Source: a virus
DNA: 18,718 nucleotides
Virus genome (UHGV): UHGV-0133874
Strand: one strand, 5' to 3'
Part shown: in pieces, positions 1-18,718 of the stretch
Layout of the letters: each line of letters opens with the position of its first letter
Numbering within the stretch: position 1 is the first letter of the stretch
Program-made: the position numbers and the translations under genes
Notes under the pieces: generated by a model
Seen by the model: the letters and a program-made list of their open reading frames with translations, nothing else
Databases searched by the model: none
What the model was told of the DNA's origin: nothing

Positions 1-117
1 GGAACCGCCCGCGCGCTTGATGCGTTTATTGAGGGGATGACGCTGCATTTTGTCACCGACCGTAAGCCGCTATCGCGCGAGGAGATTTTGAGGATGGTTG
101 AGAGGGTTGCAGGGTAG
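1..117 (+). CDS. 3' end (last 38 codons, ...[12 protein letters not shown]) of a flanking gene, probably host; product not recognised
   Basis: Open frame runs in from the window edge to TAG at 115-117; lies outside the att repeat next to int. Confidence 0.4.
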
Positions 118-120
118 TAG

Positions 121-147
121 ATAAATTTTAGATAACAAAAAACCCAT
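121..147. repeat. Int-proximal copy of the 27-bp att core direct repeat (ATAAATTTTAGATAACAAAAAACCCAT)
   Basis: 25/27 identity with 18565-18591; located just past the integrase 3' end, as expected for a tyrosine-integrase prophage junction. Confidence 0.5.
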
Positions 148-162
148 TTATGTAAATGGGTT
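135..162 (-). terminator. Rho-independent terminator downstream of int (minus-strand sense)
   Basis: Perfect 10-bp stem AACCCATTTA / TAAATGGGTT (141-150 and 153-162) with 2-nt loop, followed on the minus strand by a T-run (plus-strand A-run 135-140). Confidence 0.45.
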
Positions 163-221
163 AGTGAAAACAACGACTTGCAAGATAATCAATAAGTTAG
201 GTTGGTGGTCAGTGGTGGTTA

Positions 222-1274: not shown

Positions 1275-1462
1275 AAAAAATGCCCTCCAATAGAGAGCAT
1301 TTTTACTGTATGTATAACCAGTGTCAATGTATGAAATCCTGCGACCATACATCTCACTGAAGCCATAATGAAGTAGGCTATTCTTTTTGCTATGTGATCA
1401 TGTAACTTTTGCGGTTAACCTGTGGCTCATTTTTATTTTAGGCGCAGATATAAAAGCAAAAG

Positions 1463-1654
1463 TTATCGTGAGTTTTTAGTACAGATTTTTTTGGATTTAC
1501 TAATAGTTCCATCATTGCAAACGAATTTGCCATCAGAGGTACAGTGAGAAACACCTCCCTTTTTCCCTGAGCAGGGATAATTTCTAGCATAGGTAGCTAG
1601 TGGGTTTAATAACAAAGAACATGACAAAACCACAAAAAATACCTTACCAAGCAT
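1463..1654 (-). CDS. Small (63 aa) predicted secreted peptide with N-terminal signal peptide and 4 Cys in the mature part; unknown function
   Basis: Hydrophobic N-terminus [23 protein letters not shown] with A-x-A-like cleavage site; GGAG 7 nt upstream of the ATG; AT-rich relative to neighbours; sits between cI and int on the same strand. Confidence 0.5.
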
Positions 1655-1669
1655 AATTTTCTCCCGGTA

Positions 1670-2239
1670 CTATTTAACATACTTGACTGTTAAACTTATA
1701 ATTTTACCAATTATTTCAATGTCTTCTATCTTACATTCAAAGGCTCTGTTTCCACCCTCGACGAAGATTCTTCCACCGGGTAAACGAGTAATGTCACGGA
1801 TCGTTATTTCGCCATCAATACTTATTACCCATTTACCATCACGTATATCATCAAATTCCTTATCACAAATAAATTCAGAATTATTATCTGTGATTACAAA
1901 AAGATTCTTGAATGCCGACGGTAGAAATTCTCTATCGAAAATATAAAAACCGTCTTCACACAAGGCCCCATCAGATAATACATATTTAGCAACTTCCATA
2001 GTATTTGTATTACCTGAAGTTTGCTTTGAACCATGCCCGGTTGTGAGCCAATTAAGCGAGGTGCCTGTTTCAAGGGCGCACTGGATTACCCATTCTGCTG
2101 GGAATGAGTCACGCATGTAGCGTGTGGCGAGTGTACTTTTAGAGATTCCTAAATGATCGCACAACGCCTGTCGAGTCTTGAATCCATAAGCTTCTACCAT
2201 GCGCTCTATGGCGCCTCGTCCGCCTTTCTCCAAATTCAT
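1670..2239 (-). CDS. cI: 186-type CI immunity repressor (N-terminal HTH, C-terminal oligomerisation domain)
   Basis: 189-aa product from ATG at 2237-2239 with GGAG 5 nt upstream; size and position (divergent from apl/cII, upstream of int) match the 186 CI repressor. Confidence 0.85.
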   Translation of the reverse strand: MNLEKGGRGAIERMVEAYGFKTRQALCDHLGISKSTLATRYMRDSFPAEWVIQCALETGTSLNWLTTGHGSKQTSGNTNTMEVAKYVLSDGALCEDGFYIFDREFLPSAFKNLFVITDNNSEFICDKEFDDIRDGKWVISIDGEITIRDITRLPGGRIFVEGGNRAFECKIEDIEIIGKIISLTVKYVK

Positions 2240-2263
2240 GGTCACTCCAAGTGAACTTTTATC

Positions 2264-2292
2264 TTGACGATTTCACCGCGCGATCGTATGTT
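2264..2292 (+). promoter_or_regulatory. Candidate lytic promoter pR (-35 TTGACG, 17-bp spacer, -10 TATGTT) in the cI/apl switch region
   Basis: Sigma70-like hexamers read directly from the sequence, oriented towards apl/cII. Confidence 0.35.
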
Positions 2293-2364
2293 TATGGTGT
2301 TCACAAAATACAAACGATCCGTATTCGTCCTGATTAATCATCATTAAACGAGGAATGTTGCATC

Positions 2365-2586
2365 ATGAGACCTAACATTTCAATCACTCTTACCACGCCT
2401 CATGTGACTATTGAACGCTATAGCGAGCTGACAGGGCTATCCATCGATACCATCAATGACATGTTGGCTGATGGACGCCTTATCCGTCACCGTCTGCGCA
2501 AAGATAAAAAACGCGAAAAAGTGATGATCAACATAGCAGCAATGACCGTTGATGCGCTTTCAGAATGCAATCTAAACCTTAATTAG
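2365..2586 (+). CDS. Small HTH protein at the apl/cox position (putative excisionase and repressor of the lysogenic promoter)
   Basis: 73-aa ORF, first gene rightward of the switch region; assignment is mainly positional. Confidence 0.6.
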
Positions 2587-2618
2587 TTCGATTCTGAAAT
2601 ACATCAGAGGCATTGACC

Positions 2619-3128
2619 ATGTTTGATTACCAAGTTTCCAAACATCCACATTTTGATGAAGCCTGTCGTGCATTTGCACTGCGCCACAATCTGGTGCAAC
2701 TGGCAGAACGTGCAGGCATGAATGTGCAGATTCTGCGGAACAAGCTGAACCCAGCTCAGCCTCATTTATTAACCGCACCAGAAATCTGGCTGCTTACCGA
2801 TCTGACTGAAGATTCAACGCTGGTAGATGGTTTTCTGGCACAGATTCATTGTCTGCCATGTGTACCGATTAATGAGGTGGCAAAAGAGAAACTGCCACAT
2901 TACGTCATGAGTGCAACCGCAGAGATCGGGCGTGTTGCTGCAGGTGCGGTGTCTGGCGATGTAAAAACCTGTGCCGGTCGTCGTGATGCTATCAGCAGCA
3001 TTAACTCTGTAACACGACTGATGGCGCTGGCGGCTGTTTCATTGCAGGCCCGTTTACAGGCTAATCCTGCGATGGCGAGTGCAGTTGATACCGTGACTGG
3101 CCTCGGTGCTTCATTTGGTTTGCTGTGA
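2619..3128 (+). CDS. cII: 186-type CII lysogeny-establishment activator
   Basis: 169-aa product from ATG at 2619 (GAGG 8 nt upstream), the same length as 186 CII; positioned after apl. Confidence 0.8.
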
Positions 3129-3135
3129 GGTGCTT

Positions 3136-3336
3136 ATGCTGACGAAAGAACCATCATTTGCATCGCTGCTGGTTAAACAAAGCCCGGCAATGCATTACGG
3201 TCACGGCTGGATCATGGGGGAGGATGGTAAACGCTGGCATCCGTGCCGTTCACAAGATGAATTGCTGGCAGAACTATCTACGAAAAAACGGGGGAACAAA
3301 TGGCTATTGAAGGCACTGCGGCGACTGTTCCATTAA
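3136..3336 (+). CDS. Small early-region protein, unknown function (position of 186 fil/dhr-type genes)
   Basis: 66-aa ORF from ATG at 3136 with GAGG 5 nt upstream, immediately after the cII stop. Confidence 0.5.
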   Translation: MLTKEPSFASLLVKQSPAMHYGHGWIMGEDGKRWHPCRSQDELLAELSTKKRGNKWLLKALRRLFH

Positions 3337-3641
3337 GCCCCGGTGAACGCCTGAATGGACTTAATCACATTGCGGAGTTAAGGGCGAAAGTTTTTGGCCT
3401 GAATATTGAGTCAGAGCTTGAGCGGTTTATTAAAGATATGCGTGATTCACGGGATATTAATAGCGAACAAAATAAACGGGCACTGGCTGCCATATTCTTT
3501 ATGGCAAAAATTCCAGCTGAACGTCATAGCATCAGCATTAATGAGCTGACCACTGACGAAAAGCGGGAGTTGATTAAAGCAATGAATCATTTTCGTGCAG
3601 TGGTGAGCTTATTTCCCAGACGGCTAACCATGCCGAATTAA
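3300..3641 (+). CDS. Early-region hypothetical protein
   Basis: 113-aa ORF, GGGGA upstream of ATG at 3300; overlaps the preceding ORF by 37 nt, so the true start may be further downstream. Confidence 0.5.
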   Translation: MAIEGTAATVPLSPGERLNGLNHIAELRAKVFGLNIESELERFIKDMRDSRDINSEQNKRALAAIFFMAKIPAERHSISINELTTDEKRELIKAMNHFRAVVSLFPRRLTMPN

Positions 3642-3708
3642 CCAACTAATGAAATTAATGGCGTAAACCCGCCGGGCATCCCTTTATCTAAATTCAGGAG
3701 AATTGATT

Positions 3709-3942
3709 ATGCGTAATATTGAAACCCTCTCGACCAAAACCGGACCGGATGACGCAGGGCTTAATATTTTACTGACAGAGGCTCGTCTGGAAGAACGCCG
3801 GGCAAGGGCTGAAGCAATGGCAGCTCGCCTTGATAGCCTGGCGTGTCATATCACATCCCGCCAGCTAACCCACGTCGAAGCGGCAGAACTGCTTCGTGTG
3901 ACTGCTGAAGCAATCCAGAACGAAGCGCAGGAGATCCACTAA
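3709..3942 (+). CDS. Early-region hypothetical protein (77 aa)
   Basis: ATG at 3709 with AGGAG 8 nt upstream; stop overlaps the next start (TAATG). Confidence 0.55.
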   Translation: MRNIETLSTKTGPDDAGLNILLTEARLEERRARAEAMAARLDSLACHITSRQLTHVEAAELLRVTAEAIQNEAQEIH

Positions 3943-4169
3943 TGGCTGATGCAATGGATCTCGTACAGCAGCGCGTTGAAGAAGAACGCCAACGCCATAT
4001 CCGTGCTGCCCGTGCCAAAACGCCGGGCGTGTCCCGCGTGCTTTGCATTGAGTGTGAAGCGCCAATTCCGCCAGCACGCCGCCGTGCCATTCCGGGTGTG
4101 CAGCTTTGCATTACCTGTCAGGAAATCGCAGAGCTGAAAGGCAAACATTACAACGGAGGTGCTGTATGA
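3942..4169 (+). CDS. TraR/DksA-family C4 zinc-finger protein (phage TraR-like)
   Basis: 75 aa with CxxC-N17-CxxC (CIECEAP...CITCQE); AGGAG upstream. Confidence 0.8.
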   Translation: MADAMDLVQQRVEEERQRHIRAARAKTPGVSRVLCIECEAPIPPARRRAIPGVQLCITCQEIAELKGKHYNGGAV

Positions 4170-5023
4170 GCACCATCCTGAAATGGGCGGGAAATAAAAC
4201 CGCCATTATGTCCGAACTGAAAAAACATCTTCCTGCTGGCCCGCGACTGGTTGAACCTTTCGCGGGTTCCTGTGCTGTGATGATGGAGACGGATTACCCC
4301 AGCTATCTTGTTGCGGATATTAATCCTGATTTAATCAACCTCTATAAAAAGGTTGCTGCTGATTGCAAGGCGTTTATATCTCGTGCCAGAGCTTTATTTG
4401 AGGAAGCAAACAGGGATGTGGCTTATTACAACATAAGGCAGGAGTTTAATTACTCCACTGAAATTACTGATTTCATGAAAGCGGTATATTTCCTGTATCT
4501 CAATCGTCATGGTTACCGTGGGTTATGTCGCTATAACAAGAGCGGGCATTTCAACATTCCGTACGGTAATTATAAAAATCCGTATTTCCCTGAAAAAGAA
4601 ATTCGCGCATTTGCAGAGAAAGCCCAGCGGGCAACGTTTATCTGCGCCAGCTTTGATGAAACGCTGGCGATGCTGCAGGTGGGGGATGTGGTGTATTGCG
4701 ATCCGCCGTATGACGGTACGTTTTCCGGCTATCACACTGATGGTTTCACTGAAGATGACCAGTATCACCTGGCATCCGTTCTTGAACATCGATCATCAGA
4801 AGGATATCCGGTCATTGTTTCTAACAGTGACACATCCCTGATCCGTTCGCTGTATCGCAATTTTACTCACCACTACATCAAGGCAAAACGCAGCATCGGT
4901 GTGGCAGCTGGTGAGAGTAAATCTGCAACAGAAATCATCGCTGTTTCCGGGCCGCGCTGCTGGGTGGGATTTGATCCTTCGCGTGGCGTGGATAGTTCAG
5001 CCGTGTACGGAGTACGTGCATGA
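4166..5023 (+). CDS. dam: DNA adenine methyltransferase, Dam family (probably GATC-specific, N6-adenine)
   Basis: 285-aa product aligns along its length with E. coli Dam as recalled: [15 protein letters not shown] (AdoMet motif), [19 protein letters not shown] catalytic motif; GGAGG 6 nt upstream of ATG 4166. Confidence 0.9.
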
Positions 5024-7434
5024 GTCATGCCGATATGAACAACTGCTGCGGCTTTAACGAGGCTGCCGCAGCGTTCTCATGGAACAGCCCGAAAAAGGCC
5101 ATTAACCCTTATCTGGACCCGGCGGAAGTTGCGCCGGTTTCTGCGCTTTCAAACCTGATCACTCTGTACGCTGCCGATAACGAGCAGGAACAACTGCGCC
5201 GCGAGGCACTGAGTGATCAGGTCTGGGAGCGTTATTTTTTTAATGAATCACGTGATCCTGTCCAGCGCGAAATGGAGCAGGATAAGCTCATTAGCCGGGC
5301 AAAGCTGGCGCATGAGCAGCAGCGTTTTAATCCGGATATGGTCATTCTGGCGGACGTCAACGCCCAGCCTTCCCATATCAGCAAGCCGCTGATGCAACGT
5401 ATTGAATACTTCAGCAGCCTGTGCAGGCCAAAGGCTTATTCCCGCTATTTACGTGAGACAATTAAGCCATGTCTGGAACGACTGGAGCATGTACGCGACA
5501 GCCAGCTATCTGCATCTTTTCGTTTTATGGCAAGCCATGAAGGGCTGGACGGCCTGCTTATCCTGCCTGAAATGAGTCAGGATCAGGTGAAGCGCCTGTC
5601 TACCCTTGTCGCTGCGCATATGAGCATGTGCCTTGATGCCGCTTGTGGTGATTTGTATGCCACCGATGACGTTAAGCCAGAAGAAATCCGCAAAACATGG
5701 GAAAAGGTGGCAGCGGAAACCCTGCGTCTGGATGTTATTCCGCCTGCGTTTGAGCAACTCCGTCGGAAAAGAAACCGCCGTAAACCCGTGCCCTATGAAC
5801 TCATTCCGGGTTCGCTGGCGCGTATGTTGTGTGCCGACTGGTGGTATCGGAAATTATGGAAGATGCGTTGCGAATGGCGGGAAGAGCAGTTGCGTGCTGT
5901 CTGCTTGGTCAGCAAAAAAGCATCTCCCTATGTCAGCTATGAAGCCGTGATGCATAAACGTGAGCAGCGCCGTAAGTCGCTGGAGTTTTTCCGTTCTCAT
6001 GAACTGGTGAACGAAGACGGCGACACGCTGGACATGGAGGATGTGGTAAACGCCAGCAGCAGCAACCCGGCGCATCGCCGCAACGAGATGATGGCCTGTG
6101 TTAAAGGCTTGGAGCTTATCGCGGAAATGCGTGGTGACTGCGCCGTTTTCTACACCATCACCTGTCCGTCACGTTTCCATTCCACGCTAAATAACGGCAG
6201 GCCAAACCCGACCTGGACCAACGCGACAGTAAGACAAAGCAGCGATTATCTGGTCGGCATGTTTGCTGCATTTCGTAAGGCTATGCACAAAGCCGGGTTG
6301 CGCTGGTATGGCGTGCGGGTGGCTGAGCCGCATCATGACGGCACAGTTCACTGGCACCTGTTGTGTTTCATGCGCAAAAAAGACCGCCGCGCCATTACTG
6401 CATTGTTGCGTAAGTTTGCCATCCGTGAAGACCGCGAGGAGCTGGGCAATAACACGGGGCCACGCTTTAAGTCTGAGCTGATAAACCCGCGCAAAGGAAC
6501 GCCGACAAGCTACATTGCGAAATATATCAGTAAGAATATTGACGGGCGTGGTCTGGCTGGCGAGATCAGTAAGGAAACGGGTAAATCCCTGCGTGATAAC
6601 GCTGAATACGTTAATGCCTGGGCGTCTCTGCATCGTGTTCAGCAATTCCGCTTCTTTGGCATTCCGGGGCGTCAGGCTTACCGTGAACTGCGATTGCTGG
6701 CTGGTCAGGCGGCAAGGCAACAGGGTGACAAAAAAGCAGGTGCGCCGGTACTGGATAACCCGCGCCTTGATGCCATCCTGGCTGCTGCTGATGCTGGTTG
6801 TTTTGCCACTTACATCATGAAGCAGGGCGGCGTACTGGTTCCCCGCAAATATCACCTCATCAGAACCGCTTATGAAATAAACGAAGAGCCAACCGCCTAT
6901 GGCGATCACGGTATTCGTATTTATGGCATCTGGTCACCCATTGCAGAGGGCAAGATCTGCACTCATGCAGTGAAGTGGAAAATGGTTCGTAAGGCCGTTG
7001 ACGTTCAGGAGGCGGCAGCCGACCAGGGCGCTTGCGCCCCTTGGACTCGTGGCAATAACTGTCCCCTTGCTGAAAATTTGTACCAACAAGGGAAAGACAA
7101 ATCAGCTGATGGGGATACCAGAACGGATATCACCCGTATGGATGACAAGGAGTTGCACGATTACCTGCACAGTATGAACAAAAAAGAACGCCGGGAACTG
7201 GCTGCAAGGTTACGCCTGGTGAAACCGAAACGGCGTAGAGACTACAAACAGCGAATTACAGACCATCAACGACAGCAGCTCGTCTATGAACTGAAGTCCA
7301 GAGGATTTGATGGCAGCGAGAAAGAGGTCGATTTACTCCTTCGCGGCGGCAGTATTCCGTCAGGAGCAGGCCTGCGTATCTTCTATCGGAACCAGCGTTT
7401 GCAGGAAGATGATAAGTGGCGGGATCTGTATTAA
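5020..7434 (+). CDS. A: P2 gpA-type rolling-circle replication initiator (nicking endonuclease)
   Basis: 804 aa; HxH-type metal-binding motif ([10 protein letters not shown]) and tyrosine-containing active-site segment ([11 protein letters not shown]); start overlaps the dam stop (ATGA). Confidence 0.9.
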
Positions 7435-7503
7435 TTACGCGGGTTAACAATTCGTGCTCTTAATAATACCAGGCATATCAGGCTGATGAACGTAAAAAAA
7501 CGT

Positions 7504-7546
7504 TTTACATCAGTAAGATTATTATATACTGTAAATATAAACAGTG
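7504..7546 (+). promoter_or_regulatory. SOS-regulated promoter with LexA operator (CTGTAAATATAAACAG, 7529-7544)
   Basis: Near-consensus LexA box CTGT-N8-ACAG with AT-rich centre and TA/TG flanks, overlapping a -10-like TATACT (7525-7530), with -35-like TTTACA at 7504-7509. Confidence 0.7.
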
Positions 7547-7587
7547 GTTATGTGTACAGTATTGCTTGTGGTGTCATAGGAGGAAAA

Positions 7588-7776
7588 ATGCAGGACTATT
7601 TTTTGGAGTCTTTGAAGCTCCAGCGCATTGATTTTTTTCTTAAGCTTGTAGCGGCTAGTGAGTGTAGTGATGAAGAGAAGGGGCTGGCTCTGCAGTGGGT
7701 TTCTGAATTGACTGATGAACTCATGGCAAAAATCAGAAGCCACGAATACAACCGCTCAATGGATGTCATCAGCTGA
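7588..7776 (+). CDS. 62-aa ORF, first gene after the LexA box; possibly the N-terminal part of a disrupted tum-like antirepressor gene
   Basis: ATG at 7588 with AGGAGG 4 nt upstream; frame ends 10 nt before the DinI-like ORF, which is in the +1 frame. Confidence 0.5.
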   Translation: MQDYFLESLKLQRIDFFLKLVAASECSDEEKGLALQWVSELTDELMAKIRSHEYNRSMDVIS

Positions 7777-7786
7777 GGTGACTTTT

Positions 7787-8020
7787 ATGCGCATTGAAAT
7801 AATGATCGATAAAGAGCAGAAAATTAGCCAGTCTACCCTGGACGCCCTTGAATCCGAGCTTTACCGCAATCTGCGCCCCCTGTATCCCAAAACGGTAATT
7901 CGTATCCGCAAAGGTAGCTCTAACGGTGTGGAACTGACCGGACTGCAACTGGACGAAGAAAGAAAACAAGTGATGAAAATTATGCAGAAGGTGTGGGAAG
8001 ACGACAGCTGGCTGCATTAA
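7787..8020 (+). CDS. DinI-family protein (DinI / 186 Tum C-terminal-domain-like)
   Basis: 77 aa, MRIEIMIDKEQK...LDALESEL...KVWEDDSWLH matches E. coli DinI as recalled (MRIEVTIAK...IDALAGEL...ETWESADDWF); GAGGTG 6 nt upstream of the ATG. Confidence 0.75.
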   Translation: MRIEIMIDKEQKISQSTLDALESELYRNLRPLYPKTVIRIRKGSSNGVELTGLQLDEERKQVMKIMQKVWEDDSWLH

Positions 8021-8525
8021 GAAACGTTGCTGGCGTCTGAACTTGCTTCTGGCGTCAGCAAGGTTGAACAACGAGCTGTGCGAGGCGTTAGCCATCTGAT
8101 CAAAAGACATCAAATATCATATTGTATATCGTGGTCAAACGCTGGAAACTATCATTCCCGGTCAGAGGGGCTTCTTTCAATGTCCAAAAGAGTGAGATAG
8201 AGGATACAGGATGGGAAGAGCTTATGATGATTGTTCTTGGATTGACTTGGAATATTTGATGTCCATTATCTAATGGACTTGGTCTTGATAGTTATCACGA
8301 AAGAGGAAGCCAACGTCATGTATTTGAAGAGTATCTCTTACCTTTTGATTAATTATTGTCCAAGTTTTTCAAAAGCTTCTTATCTGGCGGTCGATACATG
8401 ATTTACTGTTGGATATGGTATTTAAAATTAATCTTTACACTGTGGTATATGCAGAATAGGATATTATCAATACAATCAAACCGTTTTCATACGGTTGTTA
8501 ATATTGCAATGTTATAGGTAATGTC

Positions 8526-9644
8526 ATGTATCTTTTCAAGTATTACCGTCCGGACTTCTTCTTCGAGAAAGCTATTCGTTATAATGAATTATATTTTTCC
8601 GCTCCTGCGCAATTGAATGATCCTAATGATCTCAATATAGATTATCGTTTTGATAATAAATTGAAATTATGGGATATTTTATTGCGTTCTCCTTGCGATA
8701 AATCCTATGAAAATTTGAGTCACATATTAGATTTGAGTAATTTGAAGATACATAAGGGATTGAATCGTATTTTTAGAGGAAAAAAAATAAAAAGTAGCAT
8801 TGAGTCATTAGATAGCCTGTTTGACTCACACGTTGATGAGATACGTAAGATCATAAATGATGGTTTACTACCTATCAATGTGATTAATTCCGCTATTTAT
8901 GGGAATATTCCTGAACCACGCCAATTTTTGGTCTCACTTTGCGAGAACAGTATCAAAGAAAGGTTGTATAGGAAAATAGTTCCTGCAGTATTCAGTGTGT
9001 CATTTTCAGCTAATGCGTTAGATCGTATGATGTGGGCGCATTATGCTGCAGGCTTTAGTGGTTGTGTTGTGATTTATGAAACGCAGGATTTTAATATTAA
9101 TGGCGTGCCACATCCTGGAATGAAGCTAAGAGAAAATTTATTTTCATCAGATAAATTTAATTTTCCAGTTAAGCAAATAAAATATAGTAATCAGGCTAAA
9201 GAGGTTTCACTTCTAGACCCAAGCGCAAATGTTGCAGAGTTATTTTTAACTAAAAATAGATTTTGGAGATATGAAGCTGAATATCGAATGTTTATTCCAG
9301 AGGCAAATGCAGGAATAGGGAGTGAGCGGCATGTTCAAAGACGCGTAAATCGAAATATTGGACATATTTTTCATCATGATGCTAATGTTGTTAAAGGGAT
9401 CATTTTTGGTCCTAGAATGTGTGAAATGAAAAAAGAAAGCATATGGAATTGTATCAAGTCAAATATGGAGAATTCAAATTCAACAATATGTTATTTTTTT
9501 GACTCTGAGTTATCAGCATCAGGAAAGATTACTATTTCAAAAGGGCAACGAGCGGAAAAAATGAAAAATTTCCCTTTGTTCAGGAACAAGTTAAGTCAGA
9601 CGGAAATGGCTAAAGTTTTGAAGGAAATTGGCATTACGAACTAA
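8526..9644 (+). CDS. DUF2971-like protein (372 aa), function unknown; candidate accessory/defence gene
   Basis: N-terminal pattern FKYYRPDFF...NELYFSAPAQLNDPND and central MWAHYAAGFSGCVVIYE resemble what I recall of the DUF2971 signature; gene is markedly AT-rich versus the phage backbone and sits alone between tum and cos. Confidence 0.6.
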   Translation: MYLFKYYRPDFFFEKAIRYNELYFSAPAQLNDPNDLNIDYRFDNKLKLWDILLRSPCDKSYENLSHILDLSNLKIHKGLNRIFRGKKIKSSIESLDSLFDSHVDEIRKIINDGLLPINVINSAIYGNIPEPRQFLVSLCENSIKERLYRKIVPAVFSVSFSANALDRMMWAHYAAGFSGCVVIYETQDFNINGVPHPGMKLRENLFSSDKFNFPVKQIKYSNQAKEVSLLDPSANVAELFLTKNRFWRYEAEYRMFIPEANAGIGSERHVQRRVNRNIGHIFHHDANVVKGIIFGPRMCEMKKESIWNCIKSNMENSNSTICYFFDSELSASGKITISKGQRAEKMKNFPLFRNKLSQTEMAKVLKEIGITN

Positions 9645-9710
9645 CCTAACAACAGTGCATGCCTATGCTGCCTGAATTTGCATGACCGTTTGAGGATCGT
9701 TTTTGCTAAG

Positions 9711-9735
9711 GCCCGCCAGAACTGGCGGGCTTTTG
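9711..9735 (+). terminator. Rho-independent terminator after the DUF2971-like gene
   Basis: GCCCGCCAG-aa-CTGGCGGGC perfect 9-bp GC-rich stem followed by TTTTG. Confidence 0.7.
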
Positions 9736-9779
9736 CGTGGATCAGGCACCTGCATGAAAACCACTACACAAAGCGGGCA

Positions 9780-9798
9780 GGCGTGGCGGGGATACGAG
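9780..9798. other. Candidate cos cohesive-end sequence (GGCGTGGCGGGGATACGAG)
   Basis: First 13 nt match the 186/P2 cohesive-end sequence as I recall it (186 GGCGTGGCGGGGAAAGCAT); lies between the replication/tum arm and the portal gene, where cos sits in 186. Confidence 0.35.
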
Positions 9799-9900
9799 CG
9801 CGCGCTAACTCATAAATCCTAGATTATTAGTGGATTTATCTCATTGAAATGTGCACTATTCCCAGCATTGAGTTGTACCAGATGTCTTTATGGAGGGACT

Positions 9901-11667
9901 GTGGCTTTTGTAACTGATATTCGGCTTGAAGATAATGCTATTGCTGCACCTGCGACAGCACAGGTTATGGCTCAGAGGCTAGGATCTGTATTACGTAAGA
10001 GATATGAAGAATTCATCCATAAAAGAGAGTGTGCACCAGGCCAAGCAGACTATGATGTAAAAATGGCTAGCAGGGCTTTAGCTGCATTCACTATGTATCA
10101 GTTAGGATGTGTGGATGATAAGTATGCAGGGGAGTCTGTATGTGATAGTAGTGAAGATGGTGGTATAGATGGAATAGCAATCAACCATAACGAAAAAATC
10201 GTTGTTGTTGTTCAATCAAAATTTCACCAATCGGGAAACGGCACTTGGACAAGAGCCGATTTTATGTGTTTTAAGGATGCTTGTGAGAAGCTACAAAGTG
10301 AAAGATACGAATTATTTGATTCCATATTGCAAAATAAAAGCGGGGAAATAAGTGCGGCTTTAAGTAGTTTTGAATACAAGTTCATCTTTGCGATGGCGCA
10401 TACAGGTAAAAAAGGTGCTGCAGAGGAAATATTAAATGATATGCGGGAATGGCAATATCAATTAAACGCTGCAGCTTTTACACCTGAGGATGAGCCTAAA
10501 GAGAACTGGGGATTTCAGGTTCATTTAATATCCTCTGAAGATATGATGCATTGGTTACAGAATGGCTCTCGAAATCAAATTGATCTTAACAGGGTTGAAA
10601 TTGAGCGTTTTGGATTTTTGAATGAACCATATCAAGCTTTTTACGGGGCTATTAGTGGTGATCAAGTTGCAGAATGGTGGGAAGAGCATGGTGCTCGATT
10701 ATTTACAAAAAACATAAGGAATATGCTTGGTAAAACAGAAGTGAATGAGGAAATAAAAAAGACAGCTATAGATAATCCTGATATGTTTTGGTTTTATAAT
10801 AATGGGATTACTGTACTGGTTAAGGAAGTTGTTCCTCATAGACGAAACGCAGCTCCTAATATAGAGAGAGGGATTTTTGATTTTCGTGATGTAAGTGTCA
10901 TTAATGGTGCACAAACAGTCAGTAGTATTGGCGCATGTAAAGATGCACTTGGTGAAAACATATATAGACTCAAAGTGCCAGCTAGATTCATTGTTATAGA
11001 TGATGATACTGATAATTTAACTGCAAATGCAATTACAAAAGCTAACAATTTCCAAAATAGAGTATTGGGAAGAGATTTTGCATCGCAGCAGGCAGATCAA
11101 CATAGATTGGCAAGGGAGTTAGTGCTTGAAGGATATCAATATCAGTTACTAAGAACAGATGAAGATCATTCACAGACAAATACGAAAGTCATTGACTTGG
11201 ATGAGGCGCTCAATGCACTCGCATGTTTAAGTAAAAATAATACGGTTGTATCGACACTAAAATCAAATCGCGGTAGGTTTTTTGAAAATTTTGAAGGCTC
11301 TCTATATAAAACTATTTTCAATCCAAGATTAAGTGGTTTAAAACTTATCAATACTGTTCTACATTTTAGAGTTATAGATAAGTTGATCGGTAAAACATTA
11401 CTATCAGTAGATAAAACGACCCATAGTCGCAAGCATTTAATTATTACGCATGGTAATAGATACTATGCGTCTGTACTATTGAGCAACGTTTCTGGGATAC
11501 ATAATAGCTCAGAAATTCTTGTTCCAGATGAAAAAAATCTTTCCGAAGAATTAAGTGCATTAATTCAACGTGCTGAAGAGTACATTGAAGATAATTACCC
11601 GAATGCCTATCCGGCAAGATTTTTTGCAAATCCAACGAAAATACAAGAGTTATACGATAATGTTTAA
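9901..11667 (+). CDS. Protein with N-terminal Mrr-like PD-(D/E)xK nuclease motif and AIPR-like C-terminal region (abortive-infection-type); candidate anti-phage effector
   Basis: Open frame 9844-11667 (607 aa from TTG 9844; 588 aa from GTG 9901 with GGAGGG 3 nt upstream; ATG at 9967 also in frame). DGGIDGIAI...KIVVVVQSKF resembles the Mrr catalytic D...(Q/E)xK motif; WFYNNGITVL and INGAQT resemble AIPR-family motifs as I recall them; AT-rich. Confidence 0.75.
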   Translation: MAFVTDIRLEDNAIAAPATAQVMAQRLGSVLRKRYEEFIHKRECAPGQADYDVKMASRALAAFTMYQLGCVDDKYAGESVCDSSEDGGIDGIAINHNEKIVVVVQSKFHQSGNGTWTRADFMCFKDACEKLQSERYELFDSILQNKSGEISAALSSFEYKFIFAMAHTGKKGAAEEILNDMREWQYQLNAAAFTPEDEPKENWGFQVHLISSEDMMHWLQNGSRNQIDLNRVEIERFGFLNEPYQAFYGAISGDQVAEWWEEHGARLFTKNIRNMLGKTEVNEEIKKTAIDNPDMFWFYNNGITVLVKEVVPHRRNAAPNIERGIFDFRDVSVINGAQTVSSIGACKDALGENIYRLKVPARFIVIDDDTDNLTANAITKANNFQNRVLGRDFASQQADQHRLARELVLEGYQYQLLRTDEDHSQTNTKVIDLDEALNALACLSKNNTVVSTLKSNRGRFFENFEGSLYKTIFNPRLSGLKLINTVLHFRVIDKLIGKTLLSVDKTTHSRKHLIITHGNRYYASVLLSNVSGIHNSSEILVPDEKNLSEELSALIQRAEEYIEDNYPNAYPARFFANPTKIQELYDNV

Positions 11668-11670
11668 ACT

Positions 11671-11697
11671 AAAGGGAGGTTGCCTCCCTTTTTTTTA
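11671..11697. terminator. Bidirectional rho-independent terminator between the AIPR-like gene (+) and portal gene Q (-)
   Basis: AAAGGGAGG-ttg-CCTCCCTTT hairpin flanked by a T-run on the plus strand and an A/T-rich tract on the minus strand. Confidence 0.7.
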
Positions 11698-11698
11698 A

Positions 11699-12727
11699 TT
11701 AGAAATGGTATTCTTGGAATTCAATAACACCTTCTTCTATGAAATTGTTTATTTCTTGTAATCTTTTTTGCAATGGCAATAATTCATTACGTACAAATAC
11801 TTTACTCGCCTTCTCTACATCTCCAAAGCCCCCAACATTATTAGGCATTATCCCCATCATTTGCGGCGGCACACGGTGTGCCGCCATCATGTCGTCCCGA
11901 CTCACGTTCTTGATATTCAGAAACTCATCCTTCGCCGCGACTTCTGACAACGGGATAATCTGAAGCCCGTCCTTTTTGCCGTTAGGAGAGTACATAAACA
12001 GGTTGCGGAAGTTGCCTGGCCCTTTGGCGCTTTTCATTGCGTTGCGGAGGTTGTTCACATCTTCTTGGTTCTGCGCGGCATCGGTCATGTACATGATGAA
12101 ACCTGCATGGCTGCCGTTGATGTAATACTTACGGCGGAACAGTGTGGCGGACTCGTTGAGCAGGGCTGACGGGATGGCAGAAAGATAACCTGGCAGGCCG
12201 TAGATCTCCTGGTTGATGTCCGGTTCCATCAGATGAAAAATGCTGCCTTTCGTGAACTGATACGGCTGGGCTGTCATACCGTATTGCACAAACCAGTAGG
12301 TATCCAGGTCTAATCCGCGTCGGGTGTATTTTGCCAAAGCTGGCTCAAGGGCGATAACTTCACCAAAGCGGTTCGTGCGTTTCTCCAGGTAGGCGTTACC
12401 AAATACCAGATAGTCCTGCACAAAACGCGAAAAAGCCTGCTGGCTAAGCAGCGGATGAGGGATATAGGTACTGGTCAGAATGTTGCACTTTACTGCAATC
12501 GGGGAACTGTGATGCACGGCGGCGCGGAAGGTGCGCGCCAGTCCATTAAAGCTGACGGGCGGCTCATACCAGCGATCCATCTGTACGCATTCCACATAGT
12601 CCAGCAGTTCGCGGCGGTCCAGCACGGGGATGGGATCACCAAAGCTGAAAGCCTCAGCCGTTGGGCCGTTGCTTGGTTTTGTGTCGTGATCAACTGTTAC
12701 CTGCTTGGTGTTTTTACGTTTGCTCAT
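11699..12727 (-). CDS. Q: Portal protein (P2 gpQ / 186 W family)
   Basis: 342 aa, position immediately downstream of the terminase genes on the minus strand; P2 Q is about the same length. Confidence 0.9.
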   Translation of the reverse strand: MSKRKNTKQVTVDHDTKPSNGPTAEAFSFGDPIPVLDRRELLDYVECVQMDRWYEPPVSFNGLARTFRAAVHHSSPIAVKCNILTSTYIPHPLLSQQAFSRFVQDYLVFGNAYLEKRTNRFGEVIALEPALAKYTRRGLDLDTYWFVQYGMTAQPYQFTKGSIFHLMEPDINQEIYGLPGYLSAIPSALLNESATLFRRKYYINGSHAGFIMYMTDAAQNQEDVNNLRNAMKSAKGPGNFRNLFMYSPNGKKDGLQIIPLSEVAAKDEFLNIKNVSRDDMMAAHRVPPQMMGIMPNNVGGFGDVEKASKVFVRNELLPLQKRLQEINNFIEEGVIEFQEYHF

Positions 12728-13431
12728 TCTGCCAGTTCCTTGCTAGCGAGAGGCCATTCGCACATAAACAGCATTTTCCAGTCCTTTTCTGATAATTCTT
12801 TTTTCATATCGTTCAGCCAGTTATCAGTAAACAACATTGCTCCAGATGCTGCTGCGTCATCTGCGGTGAACACCATGCTGGTTACGCTGTTGTTTCTGCA
12901 TAGCTTTTTATATTCCTGCCGTGCCTCTGGGTTAGGGCTGGGAGTGGTGTAGTAGGTGGCGTGGTAGTGTGCGTGCATAGAAATCCCTTTAGCGATGGCA
13001 ATCATATTTCTCGGTGATTCACTCCAGGCATACTCTGACACGTAAACATTTCCACTGAGTGCGGAGGTGAGACTGCTGAGGTCGGTAAAATAAATTACTG
13101 CACCATTCGGAAGCTCCAGATGACTTTTGCCTGATTTTATTTTTCCAGTGTGCGTATAAGCTGCGGCCTGGCTTAAGAATGCTGATACACAGGCTTTGAT
13201 TGCCTGCGCAGATGCTGTGCTGCAGCAGAGGAAAATCTGGTTACGCCCGGTATGCAGTGCATCGTTCAGGGCTTCATAGGAAAAAAAGAAATCCGCGCCT
13301 GCCTGGCGCATTTTTGTGAGTACACGGTTTCTACTCTTTGGGCCAGTGTTCCACTCATACTGGTAAGCAAAGAAAAAGCTATCCACCGGAAGTCCCGCGA
13401 TAGTCATGAGGTTAGTTGGGATTGGGGGCAT
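12724..13431 (-). CDS. Terminase large-subunit ATPase-domain paralog (235 aa), lacking the N-terminal and nuclease domains, with degenerate Walker motifs
   Basis: Aligns by eye to residues ~140-380 of the adjacent P protein (ALNDALHTGRNQIFL vs ALIDALLTGRNQIFL; ELPNGAVIYF vs VLPNGATLYF; TYYTTPS vs TYFSTPS; MLFMCEW vs NLLMCEF); Walker A RQIGAT is RQAGAD and Walker B LYLDEY is VYVSEY; start/stop overlaps with P (TGATG) and Q (ATGA). Confidence 0.7.
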   Translation of the reverse strand: MPPIPTNLMTIAGLPVDSFFFAYQYEWNTGPKSRNRVLTKMRQAGADFFFSYEALNDALHTGRNQIFLCCSTASAQAIKACVSAFLSQAAAYTHTGKIKSGKSHLELPNGAVIYFTDLSSLTSALSGNVYVSEYAWSESPRNMIAIAKGISMHAHYHATYYTTPSPNPEARQEYKKLCRNNSVTSMVFTADDAAASGAMLFTDNWLNDMKKELSEKDWKMLFMCEWPLASKELAE

Positions 13432-15197
13432 CAAAAAATCTCCACAATATTGCTGGTATTGGCGGATTCGCCCTGCAGCGGTTCGTTAAACAGTGCGTGC
13501 ATCGTTGCCCAGGCCAGATCGGCGTGGCTGGCTTCTTCGCTGCGGCTGGCTTCATAGGTTGGGCGGTTGCCGCTCGCGGTGGTGGCGCGACGGATTGCCA
13601 TGAATGACTGCGCTATGTCGGTGTGTCCGGCGTCAAACTCCAGACGGCGGTGGCTGATAATGTCGTAGGCCTTGAGTACCAGGGCGTTTTTAACATTGGG
13701 GTTATAGACAAACTCCCGGACGGCTGGAAAAAACGCTTTCACGTTCTCGTAAACCCCGTGGCCGACACCTGTCGAGTCGATGCCGATGTAGGTCACGTTG
13801 TACTGCTCGGTCAGTTTTTTGATGGCGTCAGCCTGGGCGCGGAAGTCCATCCCACGCCACTGGTGACGCTCAAGAATGCGGAACTTACCACCAGGCACGG
13901 CTGGCGGTGCCACCACTACGCATCCGGCGCTGTCGCCGTTTTGCGTACCTTTTGCCGGGTCATAACCGATCCACACTTCGCGCCAGCCAAACGGGCGCAG
14001 AGCCAGTGCATGAAAGTCGGTCCAGACTTCCCAGCTGTCCACCATGCACGCCTGCAGCTCGCTGAGCGGGAACACGGACGCGAGATCGTCCACAAACTCG
14101 CACATCAGCAGGTTCTGGTATTCGTCCGGGCTGTACTCCATGCGCAACTGGTCAAGGTCGAACAGGTTACAGCCGCCGCGCACCGCATCTTCCACGGTGA
14201 CTATCTGGCGGTATTGCCCGTCTGCGCACAGCAGGCCGGGGGCCAGATTGCTGTGGGACAGGTCGATGTCCACCTTGTCGGCCTTGTTGCGCCCACGGTT
14301 GAACAGCGCACCGGACCAGAACGGATAAGCACTGTGTGTCAGGCTGGATGGCGTGGAAAAATAGGTTTGTCGCCATTTTTTGTGAATAGCCATACCGGAA
14401 GCCACTTTGCGCAGCTCCTGGAATTTCGGTATCCAGAAATATTCATCCAGATACAGGTTGCCGTGATAACTCTGGGCCGTGCGGGCATTGGTGCCGAGGA
14501 AGTAAAGCGTGGCTCCGTTAGGAAGCACCATCGGATCGCCTTTCAGCTCCACCTCGACTTCTTTGGCGAAGTCTATGATGTACTGCTTAAAGACGTGAGC
14601 CTGTGCCTTACTGGCAGAAAGGAAAATCTGGTTACGTCCGGTAAGCAGGGCGTCAATCAGGGCTTCACGGGCAAAGTAAAAGGTCGCGCCGATCTGGCGT
14701 GACTTCAGCAGGTTGCGGATGCGGTTGGTTTTTCCGGCTTCCCACCAGTGGCGCTGGTAGTTGAACATGGAGGAATGGAAAATTTCTTCCAGCTTCTCAA
14801 TCTGTTCATCGGTGAAAACATTCTTTTCCGGCTGACGGCGCGGGCCTTTGTTGCGGTTGGCGACGTTAGGGTTTAAGTCGGCTTCGTTACCGCCATTGTT
14901 AAACTTGCCGATCCGCGCGTGGCGCTCCGACTGGCGCGCCAGCAGGTCAATTTCTTTGAAATCTTTCCCTTCTTTGTGCTCCTTCATAATGAGCTGGCAG
15001 TAGCGTGCGGCGGTGGTGAGCTGCATCTGATCCAGCGGCCCATAGTCACCCCACTTGTCGCGTTTTTTCCAGCTGTGAACGGTTGCAACTTTCTCGCCCA
15101 GCATTTCAGCAATGCGGGCTACGCGGTATCCCTGAAAGTACAGCAGCATGGCCTGCCGACGGGGATCGAGATCTGCGGGTGTCAGTGTGGTGTTCAT
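13431..15197 (-). CDS. P: Terminase large subunit (P2 gpP family), ATPase plus nuclease domains
   Basis: 588 aa; Walker A-like KSRQIGAT, Walker B LYLDEYFW, C-terminal nuclease-type segment IGIDSTGVGHGVYE; P2 P is ~590 aa. Confidence 0.9.
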   Translation of the reverse strand: MNTTLTPADLDPRRQAMLLYFQGYRVARIAEMLGEKVATVHSWKKRDKWGDYGPLDQMQLTTAARYCQLIMKEHKEGKDFKEIDLLARQSERHARIGKFNNGGNEADLNPNVANRNKGPRRQPEKNVFTDEQIEKLEEIFHSSMFNYQRHWWEAGKTNRIRNLLKSRQIGATFYFAREALIDALLTGRNQIFLSASKAQAHVFKQYIIDFAKEVEVELKGDPMVLPNGATLYFLGTNARTAQSYHGNLYLDEYFWIPKFQELRKVASGMAIHKKWRQTYFSTPSSLTHSAYPFWSGALFNRGRNKADKVDIDLSHSNLAPGLLCADGQYRQIVTVEDAVRGGCNLFDLDQLRMEYSPDEYQNLLMCEFVDDLASVFPLSELQACMVDSWEVWTDFHALALRPFGWREVWIGYDPAKGTQNGDSAGCVVVAPPAVPGGKFRILERHQWRGMDFRAQADAIKKLTEQYNVTYIGIDSTGVGHGVYENVKAFFPAVREFVYNPNVKNALVLKAYDIISHRRLEFDAGHTDIAQSFMAIRRATTASGNRPTYEASRSEEASHADLAWATMHALFNEPLQGESANTSNIVEIF

Positions 15198-15243
15198 GGC
15201 ACAAACCTACAGCCTTGAATGAAGGCTTTCCCCGCCTGCGGTT

Positions 15244-15261
15244 TGTGTGGTTGTCGGTACA
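15244..15261. promoter_or_regulatory. Ogr/Delta-type activator binding dyad (TGT-N12-ACA) in the divergent late promoter region between P and O
   Basis: TGTGTGGTTGTCGGTACA fits the P2-family late-promoter element; centred ~87 nt upstream of the O start codon and ~55 nt from the P start codon. Confidence 0.4.
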
Positions 15262-15339
15262 AATACCGCGCATTGTTTCACTGCCCCCATCACCGCAACC
15301 ATAAGGCTCCAGTAAGTTTTTTCTAACGGAGCACGGCTC

Positions 15340-15679
15340 ATGACAGTGAAAGCAAAGCGTTTTCGCATCGGGGTGGAAGGTGCCACCACCGACGGACGCG
15401 AAATCCAGCGTGAATGGCTGGAACAGATGGCAGCCAGCTACAACCCGGCGGTGTATACCGCGCTGATTAACCTTGAGCACATCAAGTCTTATCTGCCGGA
15501 CAGCACCTTTAACCGCTACGGCAAGGTGACGGCGCTGTTTGCTGAAGAAATCACGGAAGGTCCGCTGGCAGGCAAGATGGCGCTGTATGCCGACGTTGAG
15601 CCAACGGAGTCCCTGGTGGAACTGGTGAAAAAAGGCCAGAAATTATTCACCTCTATGGAAGTCAGCCCGAAGTTCGCTG
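15340..15679 (+). pseudogene. O: Capsid scaffold gene O, N-terminal ~110 codons only (truncated by an internal deletion)
   Basis: MTVKAKRFRIGVEGATTDGREIQ...INLEHIKSYLPDSTFNRYGKV...LFTSMEVSPKFAD matches the P2 gpO N-terminus as recalled; after ~15680 the frame reads through tape-measure sequence out of frame to a stop at 15855. Confidence 0.65.
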
Positions 15680-16612
15680 ATATCTGGTCTGTTAGGTGCT
15701 CTGCTCAGTCCGATAGGTCTTGTGGTTACTGCACTGGCGGGCGTGGCGCTGGTTGTCTGGAAATACTGGCAACCCATCACCGCATTTCTCGGTGGCGTGG
15801 TGGAAGGATTCAAAGCGGCGGCAGGTCCCATCAGTGCAGCGTTCGAACCGCTTAAGCCCGTGTTCCAGTGGATTGGCGACAAAGTGCAGGCGCTGTGGGG
15901 CTGGTTTACTGATCTGCTGACGCCCGTTAAGTCGACCTCTGCCGAACTGCAGAGCGCAGCGGCAATGGGGCGGCGATTCGGGGAGGCACTGGCGGAAGGG
16001 CTGAATATGGTCATGCATCCGCTGGACTCCCTGAAATCCGGCGTTTCCTGGTTGCTGGAGAAGCTCGGCATTGTCAGTAAAGAGGCAGCAAAGGCAAAAC
16101 TGCCGGAAAGCGTGACGCGTCAGCAACCTGCGACGGTGAATGCAGACGGTAAAGTGATGATGCCATCGGGTGGTTTTCCATCATGGGGATATGGCTTTGC
16201 GGGGATGTATGACAGCGGCGGGTATATCCCGCGCGGGCAGTTTGGCATCGTCGGTGAAAACGGGCCGGAAATTGTTAACGGCCCGGCAAATGTGACCAGC
16301 CGGAGAAATACAGCTGCACTGGCTGCCGTTGTTGCCGGAATGATGGGCGTTGCTGCCGCGCCAGCAGAGCTTCCACCGTTGCACCCTTTGGCACTTCCCG
16401 CGAAAGGTGGAGAAGCAATTGTGAGTCGCGCAGCCACTGTGCCGCTCGTTCAACGGATTGAGGCACCGACGCAGATCATCATTCAGACGCAGCCAGGACA
16501 AAGTGCGCAGGATATTGCGCGGGAGGTGGCACGCCAGCTTGATGAACGTGAACGCAGGCTGAAGGCAAAAGCCAGGAGTAACTACAGCGATCAGGGGGGA
16601 TACGACGCATGA
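15680..16612 (+). pseudogene. T: Tail tape-measure gene T, C-terminal ~300 codons only (5' portion deleted)
   Basis: Hydrophobic segment (GLLGALLSPIGLVVTALAGVALVV) and C-terminal GQFGIVGENGPEIVNGPANV typical of tape-measure C-termini; in the +1 frame relative to the O remnant, with an upstream in-frame stop at 15626-15628; followed by U and D as in P2. Confidence 0.65.
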
Positions 16613-17094
16613 TGATGGTGCTGGGATTGTACGTGTTTATGCTGCGCACCGTTCCGTATCAGGAACTGCAGTATCAACGCAGCTGGCGACATGCGGCAAA
16701 CAGTCGGGTAAACCGACGTCCGTCCACGCAGTTTCTGGGACCGGAAAACGACATGCTGACGCTTTCCGGTGTTCTTATGCCGGAAATAACAGGCGGCAGG
16801 CTGTCGTTGCTGGCACTGGAGCAGATGGCAGAACAGGGGAAAGCATGGCCCCTGATTGAAGGCAGCGGCACGATTTATGGCATGTATGTGATTGAGGGAC
16901 TGAATCAGACTAAAACGGAGTTTTTCCGCGACGGTATGCCGCGCCGGATTGAGTTCACCCTGTCGCTCAAAAGGGTGGATGAATCATTGTCCGATATGTT
17001 CGGTGATCTCAGTGCGCAACTGAATAATCTGCAGGACACGGCAACATCTGCCTTAAGTGATATCAGTAAAACGGTGGGAGGGCTGCTGTCGTGA
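16609..17094 (+). CDS. U: Tail protein gpU
   Basis: 161 aa (P2 U ~159 aa); ATG overlaps the T stop (ATGA); GGGGGGA 8 nt upstream; T-U-D order. Confidence 0.85.
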   Translation: MMMVLGLYVFMLRTVPYQELQYQRSWRHAANSRVNRRPSTQFLGPENDMLTLSGVLMPEITGGRLSLLALEQMAEQGKAWPLIEGSGTIYGMYVIEGLNQTKTEFFRDGMPRRIEFTLSLKRVDESLSDMFGDLSAQLNNLQDTATSALSDISKTVGGLLS

Positions 17095-18191
17095 ATTTCA
17101 GCTCTGAACTGCTTAACAAAGGCAACAAAACTCCCGCATTCAGCATCAGTATTGAGGGCAGGGATATCACCACAGTGCTGGACAACCGCCTGATGAGTCT
17201 GACGCTGACGGATAACCGGGGCTTTGAAGCGGACCAGCTTGATCTGGAACTGGACGACGCCGACGGAAAAATCGTGCTGCCGCGTCGTGGTGCGGTTATT
17301 ACGCTGGCGCTGGGCTGGAAGGGGCAGCCGCTTTTCCCGAAAGGGGCATTCACGGTGGACGAGATTGAACACACTGGCGCACCGGATCGCCTGACTATCC
17401 GGGCGCGAAGTGCTGATTTTCGTGAAACGCTGAATACCCGCCGTGAAAAATCGTGGCACAAGACCACTGTCGGGGAAGTGGTGAAGGAAATAGCCGCGCG
17501 GCACAAGCTGAAGATGGCACTGGGTAAAGACCTGTCGGATAAGCCCGTGGAGCATATAGACCAGACTAATGAGAGTGACGGCAGTTTTCTGATGCGGCTG
17601 GCGCGACAGTACGGTGCCATCGCGTCGGTGAAAAATGGCAATCTGTTATTCATCCGGCAGGGGCAGGGCAAAAGCGCCACTGGTAAACCACTGCCAGTGA
17701 TCACTATCACACGCAAGGACGGCGACAGTCACCGCTTTACCCTGGCAGATCGCGGAGCCTACACGGGCGTAATTGCCAGCTGGTTGCATACCCGCGAACC
17801 TGCGAAGAAAGAAAGCACCACGGTGAAGCGTAAGCGCAGAACTAAGAAGCAGAAGAAAGAGCCGGAAGCGAAGCAGGGCGATTACCTGGTGGGTACGGAT
17901 GAAAACGTGCTGGTACTTAATCGCACCTATGCCAACCGGGGCAACGCCGAACGGGCAGCGAAAATGCAGTGGGAACGCCTGCAACGCGGTGTTGCGTCAT
18001 TCTCGCTACAACTGGCAGAAGGTCGGGCAGATCTCTACACGGAAATGCCAGTGAAAGTCAGTGGCTTTAAACAGCCGATAGATGATGCGGAATGGACTAT
18101 TACCACCCTGACGCATACTGTCAGCCCGGATAACGGTTTTACGACCAGTCTGGAGCTTGAAGTGAGGATTGATGATTTCGAAATGGAATGA
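17091..18191 (+). CDS. D: Tail protein gpD (late gene D)
   Basis: 366 aa; GTG start overlapping the U stop, with GGGAGGG 8 nt upstream; position between U and ogr. Confidence 0.85.
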   Translation: MNFSSELLNKGNKTPAFSISIEGRDITTVLDNRLMSLTLTDNRGFEADQLDLELDDADGKIVLPRRGAVITLALGWKGQPLFPKGAFTVDEIEHTGAPDRLTIRARSADFRETLNTRREKSWHKTTVGEVVKEIAARHKLKMALGKDLSDKPVEHIDQTNESDGSFLMRLARQYGAIASVKNGNLLFIRQGQGKSATGKPLPVITITRKDGDSHRFTLADRGAYTGVIASWLHTREPAKKESTTVKRKRRTKKQKKEPEAKQGDYLVGTDENVLVLNRTYANRGNAERAAKMQWERLQRGVASFSLQLAEGRADLYTEMPVKVSGFKQPIDDAEWTITTLTHTVSPDNGFTTSLELEVRIDDFEME

Positions 18192-18281
18192 TTCTTCGCA
18201 ATGGAGAACTTTTAAGTTTGCAAAATGGAATAATGCGGTATCATTATTGTGAATTTAGCAAAAATGGGGAGAACTCGAAAA

Positions 18282-18500
18282 ATGATGATTTGCCCACTGT
18301 GTGGAAGTGCCGCCCATACTCGCAGCAGTTTTCAGGTATCTTCATTGACCAAAGAGCGTTACAACCAGTGCCAGAATATTAACTGCAGCCATACTTTTGT
18401 AACCCATGAAACTTTTGTTCGTTCGATTGCAACGCCAAAAGAGTCAAATCCGGTTCAGCCGCATCCAATGAAATCAGGACAGGTGGCGCTCTCTCTTTGA
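18282..18500 (+). CDS. ogr: Ogr/Delta-family zinc-finger late-gene transcriptional activator (186 B equivalent)
   Basis: 72 aa from ATG 18282: MMICPLCGSAAHTRSS...KERYNQCQNINCSHTF matches P2 Ogr as recalled (CPLCQHAAHARTS...KERYHQCQNVNCSATF), with C-x2-C...C-x4-C zinc ligands; the ORF-track start at 18249 is probably too far upstream. Confidence 0.85.
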   Translation: MMICPLCGSAAHTRSSFQVSSLTKERYNQCQNINCSHTFVTHETFVRSIATPKESNPVQPHPMKSGQVALSL

Positions 18501-18564
18501 CTCTGCCGCCAATTTGTCGCCATCATTAAAAAACAGTGCGTCTAACATCCTGATTTTAAAAAGC

Positions 18565-18591
18565 ATAAATTTCAGGTAACAAAAAACCCAT
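18565..18591. repeat. Ogr-proximal copy of the 27-bp att core direct repeat (ATAAATTTCAGGTAACAAAAAACCCAT)
   Basis: 25/27 identity with 121-147; followed by a CCCATCAACC...GGTTGATGGG hairpin (18587-18623) that reads as a minus-strand terminator of a gene lying to the right. Confidence 0.5.
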
Positions 18592-18718
18592 CAACCTTGA
18601 ACCGAAATGGCGGGGTTGATGGGCTCCACAAAATGGGGACATCAAAGAAAAGCAGTGGCACTAATTAAGACTGATGCCCTGCGGAAAAGTTCTGCGGTTG
18701 TGCAAAAAAATTTCATTT

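Follow-up and report, generated by a model that had tools for sequence, protein, structure and literature searches.

The stretch of DNA analysed here, which we refer to as the window (18,718 nt), is the metagenome contig ENA ERZ1744290 NODE_834, assembled from short reads at a coverage of about 10x (9.9), and it holds an entire P2-family (Peduoviridae) prophage at the E. coli site rcdA|ybjL. According to the annotation of collinear genomes, positions 1-117 are the 3' end of rcdA, and ybjL starts just past the window end. The prophage is bounded on the left by the attL core TAACAAAAAACCCAT at 133-147 and on the right by the attR core TAACAAAAAACCCAT at 18577-18591, which together form a 15-bp exact direct repeat flanking the element, and the gene for a tyrosine integrase, int (222-1274), adjoins. 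Pfam profiles for the hallmark proteins of the family were found (Phage_GPA, GPO, Terminase_5/6N/6C, Phage_portal, GpU, GPD and Ogr_Delta), the genes follow the P2-type order of annotated relatives, and DNA identity to Elveevirus/Wadgaonvirus phages is 95-99%. In all the respects tested, the element is a P2-like temperate prophage of the Peduoviridae. P2 and 186 are the classical models of this family, and an earlier, sequence-only reading of the window had taken them as its reference; the family assignment stands, but the nearest relatives are of the Elveevirus/Wadgaonvirus type, together with other prophages at rcdA|ybjL.

An intact prophage with the same rcdA|ybjL site and att core is present in E. 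coli MSB1_9D (NZ_LR890349.1, 3284.3-3318.7 kb). The early region of the window (222-8020), which includes int (minus strand), cI (1670-2239, minus strand), cII, fil, a dam methylase gene, the replication endonuclease gene A (5020-7434, plus strand) and a DinI-like gene (7787-8020), is intact and 100% identical to that of MSB1_9D, for which a PGAP annotation is available. It is followed by a cargo island (8526-11667) of low GC content (0.33-0.41), with two plus-strand genes recognised by Pfam and PADLOC: a DUF2971/PDC-S31-like gene (8526-9644), whose product matches the PADLOC candidate system PDC-S31, and an AIPR/AbiU-like gene (9901-11667), whose product matches AbiU. At the equivalent position, related prophages carry TIGR02391, DprA with a phosphoribosyltransferase, a KAP NTPase, HipA with HIRAN, DarT with macro, the retron St85 effector or GmrSD. 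Between the two cargo genes, and not beside Q, the sequence GGCGTGGCGGGGATACGA at 9780-9797 is a presumed cos-like site: it differs at 3 positions from a consensus of the P2/186 cohesive end, and 0.06 matches would be expected by chance. Its location suggests that the defence genes would flank cos on both sides.

Three minus-strand genes, all recognised by Pfam and identical to their counterparts in MSB1_9D, lie to the right of the island and encode the portal protein Q (11699-12727), a 236-aa product (12724-13434) and the terminase ATPase P (13431-15197). The 236-aa ORF is an extra one, situated between Q and P; its sole domain is Terminase_6N (ATPase), with 32% identity to the ATPase domain of P, and it is present in the intact MSB1_9D prophage and absent in relatives such as W5-6 and NCTC9041, where Q abuts P. 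A role as a decoy or as a moron is conceivable. The divergent P/O late-promoter region (15198-15339) contains a TGT-N12-ACA dyad, read directly in the sequence at 15244-15261, a putative Ogr-type activator site of the kind present in P2 late promoters. A consensus scan of 15100-16700 for promoters and terminators gave no sigma-70 site and nothing informative. At the right end of the prophage, the plus-strand genes U (16609-17094; Pfam Phage_P2_GpU), D (17091-18191; Phage_GPD) and ogr (18282-18500; Ogr_Delta) are intact.

Between the promoter region and U, an ORF of 171 aa begins (15340-15855). Its residues 6-115 match positions 2-111 of the 268-position Pfam Phage_GPO profile (E = 1.7e-54), and the remainder of the ORF, beyond residue 115, is without a Pfam match. 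Relative to the intact 34.5-kb prophage of MSB1_9D, the window carries a single SNP and lacks 16,032 bp in one clean deletion. Positions 1-15682 are 100% identical to MSB1_9D 3303156-3318837, identity ending precisely at 15682, and from 15680 onwards the window is collinear with MSB1_9D sequence located 16,032 bp further on, inside the tape-measure gene T. From 15683 to 18718, 3035 of 3036 positions are identical, the single mismatch (T/C) being at 16579. Breakpoints are given below in the coordinates of the MSB1_9D locus L003, which ends at window position 16650 and is identical to the window at 967 of 968 positions over 15683-16650. A three-way alignment places the junction at 15680-15682, a 3-bp microhomology of sequence ATA that is found on the O side at L003 32680-32682 and on the T side at L003 48712-48714. 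The aligned junction sequences read ...GTTCGCTGATA|CGGGCAAAG on the O side and ...GTATGCCATA|TCTGGTCTG on the T side, and the two ATA copies correspond to codon 114/115 of the scaffold gene O and codon 716 of T.

Both genes at the junction are left as fragments. The first, O', comprises 114 of the 277 codons of the scaffold/protease gene O (15340-15681, plus strand) and is identical to L003 32340-32681. The length of the deletion is divisible by three, yet O and T occupy different frames in the intact phage, so the O' frame runs into T DNA for 57 nonsense codons (15682-15855 with the stop, by translation) and terminates at 15855. The second, T', consists of codons 717-1025 of the 1025 in T (15683-16612, plus strand; about 309-310 codons), lacks a native start codon and ends at the T stop at 16612; the mismatch at 16579 is its only difference from T of MSB1_9D, and it is 99.1% identical to the tape-measure gene of Escherichia phage 500465-1. 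We infer that O' (15340-15855) and T' are pseudogene fragments, and they should be annotated as such and not as genes, nor should the element be counted as an inducible phage.

The interval missing from the window contains 24 complete annotated genes in MSB1_9D, besides most of O (everything after codon 114) and of T (the first 716 codons). The genes lost are those for the major capsid protein N, the small terminase (terminase endonuclease subunit M), the head completion protein L and the tail protein X; the lysis genes, namely holin, lysozyme, a DNZ54_00345-family gene, LysB and LysC; R, S, V, W, J, I, H and G; in the part with the fibre-inversion cassette, a second gene for fibre assembly, a gp53-like fragment and an invertase; and the sheath FI, the tube FII, E and E'. 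None of the 24 was found elsewhere in the window, which covers the entire prophage from attL to attR, so that genes essential for the virion in intact relatives are absent from this one. These results bear out the sequence-only reading, which had proposed a defective prophage arisen by an internal deletion of 12-17 kb from O to T, with a junction near 15680, some 110 codons of O and some 300 residues of T (measured here as 114 and 309) followed by U and D, and with the genes in between missing. The mapping of the breakpoint and the search for microhomology that it had called for were achieved with the intact MSB1_9D prophage and yielded the ATA described above.

Given that the window derives from a short-read metagenome contig at about 10x, we considered whether the assembler had falsely joined two pieces of an intact prophage. 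The rarity of the junction would fit such an artefact: a 300-bp junction query of 5,426 complete E. coli genomes did not find it, the single match of at least 80%, in NCTC9041, having 424 extra bases and thus being a different allele, and a junction-spanning 34-mer had no match in GTDB species-representative genomes or in IMG/VR. However, a contig assembled separately from another sample (ERZ1744294 NODE_4501 = OKVL01004501.1, 3,383 bp) has the identical fusion ORF and junction. Its one difference from the window is at 15299, close to the end of that contig, and it was the only hit of the 34-mer in JGI/ENA metagenomes. Moreover, the two sides of the junction have just 3 bp in common, far under any assembler k-mer, gene order and orientation are kept across the join, and the contig reads through from attL to attR without a break. 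Since a 3-bp overlap cannot create a join in a de Bruijn graph and two samples show the same junction, we reject a chimeric assembly as highly improbable. The evidence for the junction thus consists of two metagenome contigs, from samples with accession numbers close to each other, which are perhaps not independent biologically.

We conclude, with a probability of about 0.93, that the window carries a Peduoviridae prophage at rcdA|ybjL that recently underwent a single illegitimate-recombination deletion of 16,032 bp, joined at ATA. Illegitimate recombination is proposed on account of the 3-bp microhomology, and the 16,032 bp could have been removed by replication slippage or by microhomology-mediated end joining at ATA. 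Only short imperfect repeats were found in T, none of them at the junction, and no obvious hairpin was seen there. As only one SNP separates the window from its intact relative over 18.7 kb, the deletion must be very recent, and because it is so young the intact state of int, cI, A, the cargo, Q, P, U, D and ogr is not evidence of selection. The sequence-only reading was right that int, cI, A, P, Q, ogr and the cargo island are kept, and all of them are intact, but its hint of selective retention does not hold at one SNP in 18.7 kb: the integrity of these genes reflects too little time for decay, rather than demonstrable selection.

With no capsid, tail or lysis cassette, the element is expected from its gene content to make no capsids, tails or particles and not to lyse the cell. 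The genes that remain suggest that cI immunity would be maintained and the defence cargo expressed, and excision and replication through int and A are probably retained. U and D, deprived of their native F-operon promoter, would now lie downstream of the O late promoter. For the host, this gene complement would mean keeping superinfection immunity and a two-gene anti-phage cargo while shedding lysis by the prophage.

A co-resident P2-like phage could complement particle formation in trans, and the element might be imagined as a helper-dependent, mobilisable 'mini-P2' of 18.5 kb that such a phage packages. In agreement with this idea, int, A, Q, P and ogr are intact, the cos-like match at 9780-9797 is present (with its 3 mismatches to the consensus), and the contig from the second sample breaks at P/O, which is compatible with another P2-like phage in the community. 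On the other hand, the element shows none of the hallmarks of a satellite, such as a capsid-size determinant of the sid/psu kind, a primase-helicase or helper-derepression genes; it derives from a normal phage by one step and is 1 SNP old, and its junction is absent from the viral contigs of IMG/VR. Its 18.5 kb would amount to approximately 54% of a P2 headful, and stable packaging at that size is not known. We consequently consider mobilisation of this kind very improbable, and the preferred reading is still that of a prophage inactivated by one recent deletion.

To place this deletion among others at the same site, the 5,426 complete genomes were searched with a synthetic query in which the initial 1 kb of P was joined to the final 0.7 kb of T and the start of U. 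The P and T/U segments lay within 1.5 kb of each other in 33 of the 5,426 genomes, in at least 7 configurations. These, together with further compact alleles from the genome search that had matched MSB1_9D to the window, were mapped onto the MSB1_9D prophage (related loci L001, L002, L006-L010 and L015-L020), which gave at least 14 distinct junctions besides that of the window, all at rcdA|ybjL and in the same prophage family. The genome of FDAARGOS_1248 (NZ_CP069542.1 3561374-3579450, L014) was discarded as a compact allele, being a tandem double lysogen of this prophage family at rcdA|ybjL, in which ...T-U-D-ogr is followed by int-cI... and the portal gene of the second copy is frameshifted.

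The left breakpoints of these alleles are spread from P to V, and all the right breakpoints examined are in T or at the E'/T boundary. Within O, the deletion of NCTC9041 starts at codon 260 and ends in T at L003 48725, and those of the W5-6 type (27 genomes) and of EC50 both start at codon 26 and end in T at 48934 and 49169, respectively. The left breakpoints of CPE35 and GF31 are in the P/O intergenic region (right ends in T at 48466 and 47636), and those of FCI51 and D2 are in P (right ends in T at 48950 and 47881). Further to the right, deletions starting in M (LH10-b-1), L (FDN-11), X (CFSAN061772) and S (E94, plus an inserted gene) end in T at 47840, 47542, 48408 and 49221, respectively. 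The deletion of H5 runs from codon 142 of O to E' at 46513 and is accompanied by an internal deletion in T that ends at about 48727, and that of LR-46 runs from V to 47398 in T. The 7.7-kb stretch W to E is free of right breakpoints among the alleles examined. Microhomology at the junctions of the other alleles is 1-4 bp; the overlap is 1-3 bp at those that were followed base by base, with the junctions of CPE35 and D2 blurred by nearby mismatches or an indel.

Some of these loci display further peculiarities. Between S and V, E94 carries an extra minus-strand gene of the DUF6216 family (L018 20305-21111) and LR-46 an extra minus-strand hypothetical gene (L020 20809-21963), and the S-V interval may be a further cargo hot spot in both. 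In E. coli H5, the internal deletion in the tape-measure gene is 354 bp long (L019 17002-17013), and identity to MSB1_9D shifts from 99.7% to 96.6% exactly at this point, which suggests a mosaic or recombination boundary coinciding with a putative hot spot.

The distribution of breakpoints raises the question of whether such deletions are random. Under a null of uniform breakpoints that includes the joining constraint of the search, each allele has a probability of approximately 0.46 of ending in T, and all nine alleles of the less biased list (9/9) do so (p ~0.001). Near-coincident breakpoints also exceed chance: on the right, four pairs are no more than 16 bp apart (p ~0.02), and on the left, two pairs are no more than 4 bp apart (p ~0.005). 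These p-values are suggestive and of modest significance, and come from a small, ascertainment-biased survey that ignores phylogeny, and some alleles are perhaps nested derivatives of others. Three junctions, those of the window, of NCTC9041 and of the internal T deletion of H5, fall within the 16 bp of L003 48712-48727, equivalent to window 15680-15695. The differing cargo islands of the alleles suggest separate lineages.

Taken together, the at least 14 other alleles with different cargo, the convergence of their right ends on T or E'/T from left ends between P and V, and the clustering excess on both sides are what would be expected if prophages of this family were recurrently 'grounded', either by selection or through a hot spot, with the right end in T and with immunity and defence cargo kept. 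Several observations argue against it. Besides the bias of the survey and its disregard of kinship, which leave room for nested descendants among the alleles, no gene on the right side is larger than T, the prophage contains no Chi site that might cause the clustering, the junction has no obvious repeat or hairpin, and the deletion in the window, at 1 SNP, is too young for selection to be deduced. Recurrent grounding of this type is therefore in our estimation doubtful, and it is only tentatively that T can be proposed as a preferred right endpoint of large inactivating deletions, with a micro-hot-spot of about 16 bp at 15680-15695. If true, the preference would imply either illegitimate recombination directed by sequence or structure or selection for a 'grounded' architecture that dispenses with the tail, head and lysis genes but retains immunity, the defence cargo, Q/P and T'-U-D-ogr; a bias of endpoints towards T bears in this way on whether the grounding of prophages is random or directed.

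With respect to known systems, the window shares with the intact prophages of MSB1_9D and of strain 1008S13 the integration site, the att core, the DUF2971 and AIPR cargo and the extra Terminase_6N ORF, and differs from both in that they carry the 16,032 bp from the rest of O to codon 716 of T. Klebsiella phage 4LV2017 (Elveevirus), Escherichia phage 500465-1 (Wadgaonvirus) and Klebsiella phage KP12 have shared genes at 95-99% identity and the same order, int-cI-...-A-cargo-Q-P | O ... T-U-D-ogr; unlike the window, these Peduoviridae have complete particle-forming genomes of 33-39 kb and other cargo. Two other types of element were rejected. The window does not encode an R-type tailocin, since the very genes it would need, for sheath, tube, baseplate, fibres and lysis, have been deleted, and it is not a phage satellite (P4-like or PICI-like), being a P2-type genome minus one block, with helper-type P, Q, O', T', U and D.

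P2-like remnants have long been known in E. coli, for example the ogrK/gpD-like remnant of E. coli K-12. The other deleted P2-like prophages at rcdA|ybjL resemble the window in that the late region is gone, the microhomology is short and T', U, D and ogr are kept, whereas their junctions are all different (none is O114|T717) and their cargo is mostly different. Defective or 'grounded' prophages, in which morphogenesis genes are deleted and regulatory and accessory genes remain, have been described previously (PMC6379469; PMC2669165); our literature search turned up work on defective prophages in general but no study of O-T deletions in particular. The kind of event is thus ordinary and well known, and what is new here is this particular allele. 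In contrast to the classical cryptic prophages, which are old and heavily eroded, the window presents a fresh single-step deletion with the remaining genes intact, and constitutes a cleanly mapped and very young example of the one-step inactivation of a P2-like prophage.
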